Made by a program: the position numbers and the translations under genes
Part shown: positions 1-338 of the stretch, piece by piece
Position numbering within the stretch: position 1 is the first letter of the stretch
Layout: each line of letters starts with the position of its first letter
Notes under the pieces: model-generated
Databases searched by the model: none
Told to the model about the DNA's origin: nothing
What the model saw: the letters and a program-made list of their open reading frames with translations, nothing else
Assembly (NCBI RefSeq): GCF_003334355.1
Contig: NZ_QOWP01000114.1
Length of the DNA: 338 bases
Direction: 5' to 3' (one strand)
Origin: Escherichia coli
GTDB lineage: Bacteria; Pseudomonadota; Gammaproteobacteria; Enterobacterales; Enterobacteriaceae

Positions 1-338
1 CTCAGCATGTGGCCGGATAACCGTATCGCCCGTGACGCGCACTATCTTTACCGGTATGACCGTCACGGCAGGCTGACAGAGAAAACCGACCTCATCCCGG
101 AAGGGGTTATCCGCACGGATGATGAGCGGACTCACCGGTACCATTACGACAGTCAGCACCGGCTGGTGCACTACACGCGGACACAATATGAAGAGCCGCT
201 GGTCGAAAGTCGCTATCTTTACGACCCGCTGGGCCGCAGGGTGGCAAAACGGGTATGGCGGCGTGAACGGGACCTGACGGGCTGGATGTCGCTGTCACGG
301 AAACCGCAAGTGACCTGGTACGGCTGGGACGGCGACCG
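1..338 (+). CDS. Rhs-family / YD-repeat protein, conserved core region; internal fragment, partial at both ends (frame 1, codons at 1..336)
   Basis: Seen in sequence: frame 1 on the + strand has no stop codon across the window (112 codons). Translation: [112 protein letters not shown]. It contains three YD repeats matching the Rhs consensus (RYxYDxxGRL). The stretch [15 protein letters not shown]...VTWYGWDGD matches, from memory, the C-terminal part of the conserved core of E. coli Rhs proteins. I cannot say which paralog (rhsA/B/C/D or other) this is, so no gene symbol is given. About 61% GC fits the known GC-rich composition of rhs cores. Confidence 0.9.
43..75 (+). repeat. YD repeat unit 1 (protein-level), encodes [11 protein letters not shown]
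   Basis: Frame-1 translation of 43..75 is [11 protein letters not shown], matching the Rhs/YD consensus xYxYDxxGRL. This is a periodic motif within the CDS, not a separate genetic element. Confidence 0.65.
136..165 (+). repeat. YD repeat unit 2 (protein-level), encodes [10 protein letters not shown]
   Basis: Frame-1 translation of 136..165 is [10 protein letters not shown], matching RYxYDxxGRL with His in place of Gly. Confidence 0.65.
211..240 (+). repeat. YD repeat unit 3 (protein-level), encodes [10 protein letters not shown]
   Basis: Frame-1 translation of 211..240 is [10 protein letters not shown], matching RYxYDxxGR(L). Spacing from the previous units is 25-30 codons, consistent with degenerate YD-repeat periodicity. 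Confidence 0.7.

Follow-up and report, generated by a model that had tools for sequence, protein, structure and literature searches.

A 338-nt GC-rich segment of an Escherichia coli Rhs core and candidate explanations for its composition

Results

An internal segment of an Rhs core gene

The window, by which we mean the whole 338-nt stretch of E. coli DNA that was analysed, almost certainly codes for part of the conserved core of an Rhs protein of the E. coli RhsA/B/C/F subfamily (Table 1). Frame +1 is the sole frame free of stops across its length, and it runs off both ends, since the gene extends past the window on either side. Chromosomal E. coli genes annotated as RHS element core protein, rhsB or rhsC match the window at 100% identity. 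In K-12, nt 2761-3098 of rhsA and rhsB (codons 921-1032) agree with it at 337 of 338 positions, and rhsC at 335 of 338. Against the NCBIfam equivalog model NF041261 (RHS_core), its translation scored 244 bits (E = 2.3e-72) over model positions 935-1046 of 1261, a score in line with expectation because 112 of the 1261 positions are covered; full-length K-12 RhsA scored 2647 bits over positions 1-1261, with a curated cutoff of 2000. The earlier note had identified the window as rhs core, and these identities to annotated rhs core genes and to K-12 rhsA and rhsB, together with the RHS_core match (E = 2e-72), bear this out.

Table 1. Features of the 338-nt window, with coordinates counted from its first base
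Feature	Coordinates	Strand	Basis
Internal Rhs core ORF segment (RhsA/B/C/F subfamily)	1..338	+	Frame +1; codons 921-1032 of a ~1,380-1,410-aa protein
Compositional feature: 60.65% G+C, GC3 71.4%, statistically homogeneous	1..338	.	Base counts; binned test
YD-repeat unit, residues 16-30; predicted strand-turn-strand element of the Rhs shell	46..90	+	Pfam RHS_repeat, i-E 0.016; motif in translation
YD-repeat unit, residues 38-61	112..183	+	TIGR01643 YD_repeat_2x, 29.8 bits vs cutoff 15.8; Pfam RHS_repeat at residues 44-61
YD-repeat unit, residues 70-82	208..246	+	Weak Pfam RHS_repeat match; aligns to Tse5 cocoon 8cp6 residues 864-940; direct repeats D1-D3

Compared with RhsA, RhsB and RhsC of K-12 (RhsA-B-C-F subfamily; clade I of Jackson et al. 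2009), the window has the same position, frame, GC and GC3, and nothing material differs. The homologous segment of the E. coli RhsD/RhsE subfamily is likewise GC-rich, in the same register and of the same YD-repeat architecture, but it is more GC-rich than the window (64.0%, GC3 82%), its nucleotide identity to the window is 80% for both rhsD and rhsE of K-12, and third positions across the core are 59% identical. The Rhs-associated core domain TIGR03696, checked on the containing gene, lies outside the window at RhsA residues 1170-1247, as does the PxxxxDPxGL motif (aa 1238-1247 in RhsA/B/C and 1249-1258 in RhsD).

Of 5,426 complete genomes, 3,882 carry the window sequence. The number of places in a genome ranges from 1 to 8, with a median of 4, and 14,266 of the 14,268 places are chromosomal. 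Together with the empty site of strain CFT073 described below, this is the multi-copy, accessory distribution of the E. coli Rhs element. Paralogues and strains share the segment without a difference, so that it marks neither one strain nor one paralogue, and the automatic naming of rhs genes is no guide to the locus. The identical 338 nt are variously annotated as rhsB, rhsC, RHS element core protein or 'polymorphic toxin type 34 domain-containing protein'. In the O26 strain RM8426, a gene that bears the name 'rhsC' (L029 7741-11925) has rpmE on one side and yiiX/metJ on the other, whereas rhsC of K-12 is at the kdp-ybfA site. The rhsC of strain 600468 (L001 17241-21435), in which the window is matched at 100%, carries the annotation of a frameshifted pseudogene; its frame breaks at about codon 1112. 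A search for homologous proteins with the window returned almost only short E. coli fragments, several of them frameshifted or IS-fused, and some database 'proteins' (P0063, P0079) are Rhs core fragments fused to transposase-like N-termini.

A late part of the Rhs shell

In solved Rhs and Tc-toxin structures, a beta-sheet shell of YD repeats, the cocoon, encloses a variable C-terminal toxin; autoproteolysis takes place at the core/tip junction, and delivery of Rhs toxins is by the T6SS. YD-repeat motifs (YxYDxxGR[LI]), including YLYDPLGRR, are readable in the translation of the window, with TIGR01643 above its cutoff and three weak matches to Pfam RHS_repeat (Table 1). Window residues 3-88 aligned to the late part of solved Rhs shells, foremost P. 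aeruginosa Tse5 (8cp6, residues 864-940, E = 1.2e-07), and further matches were to the T6SS Rhs core of Salmonella bongori (8qjd, 8qjb and 8qjc) and to the Rhs family protein 7q97; the similarity to these cocoons is distant and lies in sequence alone. Because the alignment falls in the late part of the Tse5 shell, the window was placed near the end of the shell, and it is predicted to encode three YD-repeat units that would form shell strands shortly before the C-terminal plug and the cleavage motif.

Other candidate features of the window were rejected. For an RNA or structural element, a search of Rfam gave no match at E <= 1, the RNA fold was no better than shuffled controls (z-score +0.36; 64 of 100 shuffles equalled or surpassed it), inverted repeats were just 77-79% complementary, and direct repeats were short, with D1-D3 coinciding with the repeated YD codons of the third unit. 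Two further ORFs, at 107-298 on the minus strand (63 aa) and at 119-277 on the plus strand in frame 2 (52 aa), were rejected as genes because frame +1 alone is open from end to end and has homologues; long off-frame stop-free stretches are expected in GC-rich coding DNA. Chi sites (GCTGGTGG) occur twice on the coding strand of each K-12 rhsA, rhsB and rhsC core, at gene nt 633 and 2433, and are absent from rhsD; the window is without Chi and carries the near-Chi sequence GCTGGTGC at 161-168. At a background of 45 Chi sites per 200 kb, ~0.8 would be expected per 3.6-kb core, and two per RhsA/B/C core is no notable enrichment.

GC content of the window and of the surrounding core

An exact recount gave 108 G and 97 C, that is 205 of 338 bases or 60.65%, the same count as in the earlier note, and GC1/GC2/GC3 in frame +1 were 65.2/44.6/71.4%. 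The description of this composition as roughly uniform also holds: GC in 100-nt sliding windows ranged from 56 to 66%, and heterogeneity among six 56-nt bins was not significant (chi2 = 6.06, df 5, p = 0.30). Positions 201-338 have a higher GC (64-66%) and a positive GC skew (+0.2) relative to the first two thirds, which is within sampling noise by the same test.

E. coli chromosomes have 50.8-50.9% G+C (PMC3032704, Table 1). In strain 600468, 32 kb of DNA flanking the rhsC locus had 51.5% GC, and 2.1% of 338-nt windows there reached 60.65%; in 178 kb of non-rhs DNA of K-12, GC was 51.8%, with 1.7% of 338-nt windows at or above 60.65% and a maximum of 63.6%. Taken alone, the GC of the window is therefore in the upper tail and not unique. 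The compositional anomaly becomes decisive through its context, a stretch of 3.6 kb around the window over which GC stays at 62%. Of the K-12 genes, rhsA, rhsB and rhsC have 62% GC over their first 3.6 kb and rhsD has 64%; the sampled 3.3-kb background windows peaked at 59.0% and 79 gene-like ORFs at 58.4%, so that the whole core exceeded all of them. We regard the anomaly of the window as near certain to be real, with an excess over the host of 9 to 10 points in GC and 12 to 16 points in GC3. The prediction that the window would be atypical in an enterobacterial host thus stood, with the host at ~50.8% GC and the local flanks at 51.5-51.8%; a host of about 60% GC or higher would have made the composition unremarkable.

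Composition changes with the modules of Rhs loci

A GC-rich Rhs core joined to an AT-rich tip is an already known, long-described signature. A passage of PMC2935791 credits Hill and co-workers with describing a GC-rich core (~62%) joined to an AT-rich core extension and to AT-rich downstream ORFs, and this composite layout of the E. coli Rhs element was found at the tested loci. K-12 cores had 61.9-64.0% GC and GC3 of 72-77%, and their tips 34-41% GC and GC3 of 16-31%. When the genes were divided at the PxxxxDPxGL motif, RhsA had 61.6% GC before and 40.3% after it (GC3 72% vs 28%); the same pattern was seen in RhsB, RhsC and RhsD. As far as the motif, the four cores had 61.3-63.3% GC, with GC3 of 72-75%, and beyond it GC was 36.7-41.6%. 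The tip and the immunity, orphan and H-repeat genes that follow it have 31-41% GC, vs ~51-52% in the chromosome around the locus.

The same mosaic ran along the rhsC locus of strain 600468. The rhsC CDS had 59.8% GC vs 51.5% in the flanks, 31% in ybfB and 36% in ybfC; GC along the core was 58-69% in 200-nt bins, and ISAs1/H-repeat remnants at the locus had ~38%. In the orphan core fragment downstream, GC was back at 61-64% and then fell at the fragment's own tip. Copies of IS5 and IS1 are inserted in Rhs loci of strains CP53 and ECONIH5 (L027 13995-14975 and 16990-17687; L031 12236-12933), and the rhsC of ECONIH5 is truncated by an IS insertion.

The genome of Serratia marcescens has roughly 59% GC. 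The clade II rhs gene SMA1610 of this species resembles the E. coli locus in its core of 67.7% vs a tip of 46.4% and in a downstream low-GC trough with orphan core and tip fragments (PMC2935791), but it belongs to another clade and host and its absolute GC is higher.

The Rhs element at the rhsC site is old

Between housekeeping genes, the element is either present or absent as a block. A kdpA-ybfA-rhsC junction was found in 3,699 of 5,426 genomes, and ~1,700 matched only as far as ybfA. In CFT073 the site is empty (L035 8199-8300), with ybfA followed directly by ybgA. In occupied strains ~8 kb lies between these two genes (L001 ~17050-25390), comprising rhsC, ybfB, the orphan core with its tip, ybfC and ISAs1/H-repeat remnants. 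The absence from some E. coli strains is equally compatible with loss.

In E. albertii, 11 kb (L003 1-10981) is collinear with the E. coli rhsC locus (L001 9944-20982); the collinear stretch reaches from kdpD through the Rhs core and is 92% identical. Core identity between the two species was 92.2% and kdp flank identity 93.0%. The copy at the rhsC site thus predates the split of E. coli and E. albertii, because the E. albertii orthologue occupies the same kdp-ybfA site and its core is as diverged as the flanks. Neither sign of a recent arrival, that is absence from the site in the sister species or a divergence unlike that of the flanks, was found at the rhsC site.

Rhs genes also lie in a cytR-priA...metB-metL(-metF) neighbourhood in E. 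coli O26 (L029), Citrobacter amalonaticus (L012 172-19256) and Pseudocitrobacter faecalis (L010 1-9760), with one locus each. The flanking proteins at these three loci are 88-95% identical and the Rhs cores ~50-85%. This neighbourhood, shared by three genera, could reflect ancient residence or a shared hotspot of insertion or replacement. Jackson et al. 2009 argued that the rhs family is ancient in Enterobacteriaceae (PMC2935791).

Rhs composition in other hosts

At 17 loci from other species (Enterobacteriaceae and Pseudomonas) with sufficient flanks, the homologous segment had 56.5-73% GC and GC3 of 67-97%, and in 15 of the 17 it was above the non-rhs DNA of the same locus, as judged with host proxies that are crude (mechanical ORFs, island flanks), especially for Pseudomonas. 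Where possible, these proxies were replaced by housekeeping neighbours identified by homology. The core-minus-neighbour offset in GC3 was then +0.12 in E. coli O26, +0.12 in E. albertii, +0.06 in C. amalonaticus and +0.02 in P. faecalis, the last from a short fragment.

The scan of genome contigs yielded just close enterobacterial relatives and distant Pseudomonas homologues at 32-50% identity, and no candidate for a donor lineage of matching composition. Two short contigs also encode E. coli-type Rhs core segments: a 2.6-kb contig binned to a 'Collinsella sp.' MAG (L005 412-747) and a 270-nt contig (L009 5-202; coverage 0.77) in the assembly of 'Jeotgalibacillus sp. ET6', their amino-acid identities to the window falling in a range of 82-88%. 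Both are likely to be enterobacterial contamination or misbinning.

Direction of substitution in the core and its flank

We compared the direction of third-position change in the core and in the kdp/ybfA genes by the same method, with eight E. coli strains and E. albertii as the outgroup, so that the flank served as the control. The Rhs core showed S>W : W>S = 75 : 41, implying an equilibrium GC3 of 0.54 (95% CI 0.44-0.63) at a current GC3 of 0.70. The kdp/ybfA flank showed 161 : 109, implying an equilibrium of 0.50 (95% CI 0.44-0.56) at a current GC3 of 0.63. The core is thus further above its implied equilibrium than its neighbours, and the direction of substitution did not differ significantly between core and flank among these eight strains (Fisher p = 0.36). 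The rhsA/B/C paralogues, polarised with the E. albertii outgroup, gave S>W : W>S = 48 : 21, equal per-site rates and an equilibrium GC3 of ~0.5. Polarisation with an RhsD-type outgroup gave 84 : 25; this ratio was discounted because the third positions of that outgroup are 59% identical and 77% G/C, and such an outgroup biases parsimony towards G/C ancestors. Taken together, no special GC-raising regime is detectable in the core now; an offset of ~+0.1 in GC3* would lie within the confidence intervals, and the power of the comparison is modest.

Discussion

Legacy of the Rhs lineage or bias of the family

Probably, the core owes its GC content to the distant past of the Rhs lineage and not to the present mutation-selection regime of E. 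coli. Rhs cores would have diversified in a more GC-rich background, as the classical view holds, and core composition would have been inherited from that history. The copy at the rhsC site was already in place in the ancestor that E. coli shares with E. albertii, and its evolution since then has resembled that of its neighbours. An inherited legacy is favoured because the core shows no special GC-raising regime and sits further above equilibrium than the genes beside it, and it would be an old one because the rhsC-site copy was at its present site before the two species split. The presence or absence of the element as a block, and its joining of modules of very different composition, also speak for a separate history.

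Several observations weigh on the other side. We infer the step of a GC-rich donor, and the contig scan gave no candidate for one. A simple reading as foreign DNA is opposed by the relatives in other hosts, which are also GC-rich against their surroundings (at 15 of 17 loci, and in the S. marcescens core), by the GC3 offsets against true neighbours in E. albertii and C. amalonaticus, by the shared cytR-priA...metB-metL neighbourhood and by the argued antiquity of the family in Enterobacteriaceae. Subfamilies whose third positions are near saturation (59% identity) still share a high GC3, which also goes against a legacy, and the substitution comparison is of limited power. Either any foreign origin lies far back, then, or the bias belongs in part to the family itself. 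The earlier note had mentioned horizontal origin as the classical interpretation of such composition. The deviation in composition on which that interpretation rests is confirmed; any such origin would, however, predate the split of E. coli and E. albertii, and a family-intrinsic bias is possible.

A bias of this kind would keep Rhs cores GC-richer than their hosts wherever they reside, through GC-biased gene conversion between cores, which are multi-copy and prone to recombination, or through selection on DNA or mRNA, and GC would then say nothing about a foreign origin. We hold this explanation, the chief rival of the legacy, to be possible, though on the unlikely side. It gains from the excess of the segment over local non-rhs DNA at 15 of 17 loci and from controlled GC3 offsets that are positive in four species, alongside the Serratia core at 67.7%. 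The orthologous site in E. coli and E. albertii and the neighbourhood common to three genera agree with it, as does the hold of divergent subfamilies on GC3 of 0.72-0.79 despite 59% third-position identity. Moreover, genomes carry several copies of the core, the median being 4, and by point estimate GC3* of the core lies slightly above that of the flank (0.54 vs 0.50). Against it stand the lack of a significant difference from the flank (p = 0.36) and an equilibrium that, at 0.54 with a CI of 0.44-0.63, is well under the current 0.70-0.72. The offset also dwindles to +0.02 to +0.06 in Citrobacter and Pseudocitrobacter and is absent at one Pseudomonas locus and one C. amalonaticus locus, and the host proxies behind the 17-locus count are crude. 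Furthermore, Jackson et al. (PMC2935791) state that rhs genes tend to resemble the genome of their host in composition and codon usage.

A fuller form of this explanation, which we put forward tentatively, is that Rhs is ancient and vertically inherited and that core GC and GC3 are actively maintained across hosts, by gene conversion or by selection for distinctness from the AT-rich exchangeable tips. Ancient vertical residence would explain both the site shared by E. coli and E. albertii and the neighbourhood shared by the three genera.

Residues, codon choice and chance

A YD-repeat shell rich in Gly, Arg, Asp, Pro and Ala could by its amino-acid composition alone make the DNA GC-rich. GC1 and GC2 are indeed 65.2 and 44.6% in the window vs 60.7 and 41.9% in host genes, and GC2 is 0.47-0.48 in the core vs 0.42-0.45 in its neighbours. 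We rewrote the 112 residues of the window with the synonymous usage of 25 flanking host genes in 5,000 simulations, which gave 54.8% GC and GC3 of 55.3%, compared with the observed 60.4% and 71.4%; one simulation of the 5,000 reached the observed GC. The recoded sequence still lies ~1.5-2 points over the typical host coding average. Protein composition is a small part of the excess, because host codons bring the sequence to 54.8% and not to 60.4%, and third positions show the largest gap. Of the window's excess over the host coding average, about three quarters is located at synonymous third positions. Recoding therefore leaves amino-acid composition as a minor contributor, and very unlikely as the main cause.

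Codon optimisation in an abundantly expressed gene would be another source of high GC3, and some preferred codons are frequent in the core (CTG 67%, CAG 95%, GAC 65%, CAC 73%). However, the reference set of 30 highly expressed genes (ribosomal proteins, tufA, fusA and rpoA) itself has a GC3 of merely 50.3%, and the CAI calculated from it was 0.336 for the window and 0.37-0.41 for the cores, below the mean of 42 ordinary K-12 genes (0.464 +/- 0.083). Codons that are rare in the highly expressed genes are enriched in the core: CGG (29% vs 1%), GGG (20% vs 2%) and ACG (36% vs 6%). CGG, at 7% in ordinary genes, accounts for 9 of the 18 Arg codons of the window. The codon choices (CGG, GTG, ACG, GCC, CAG) are of the mutational-bias type and are not those of highly expressed E. 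coli genes. The two comparisons proposed in the earlier note thus agreed with its prediction, with GC3 at 71% in the window vs 57-59% in host genes and CAI at 0.34 vs 0.46 +/- 0.08 in ordinary genes. On the CAI and the codon tables, translational selection is rejected as the cause and is extremely improbable.

Chance, by which the window would be the upper tail of normal E. coli variation, has next to no probability once genomic context is counted: although 1.7-2.1% of host 338-nt windows reach its GC, it lies inside 3.6 kb at 62% that is above every 3.3-kb background window sampled, the GC boundaries match those of the gene modules, and the same composition recurs in all paralogues and orthologues.

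Significance

The GC finding in itself matters little and will not surprise a specialist. Its practical value is that of a sanity check and lies in the recognition of an Rhs core from 338 bases, and the prediction of its compositional anomaly, by a reader without tools. The classical answer, import from a GC-rich background, fits poorly with the orthologous and syntenic positions of Rhs genes and with the positive offsets in most of the other hosts sampled. Synteny and cross-host offsets also suit poorly a simple reading in which atypical composition marks a recent transfer. The cause of core GC would bear on the weight that compositional atypicality can carry when horizontal transfer is argued for repeated, recombining gene families.
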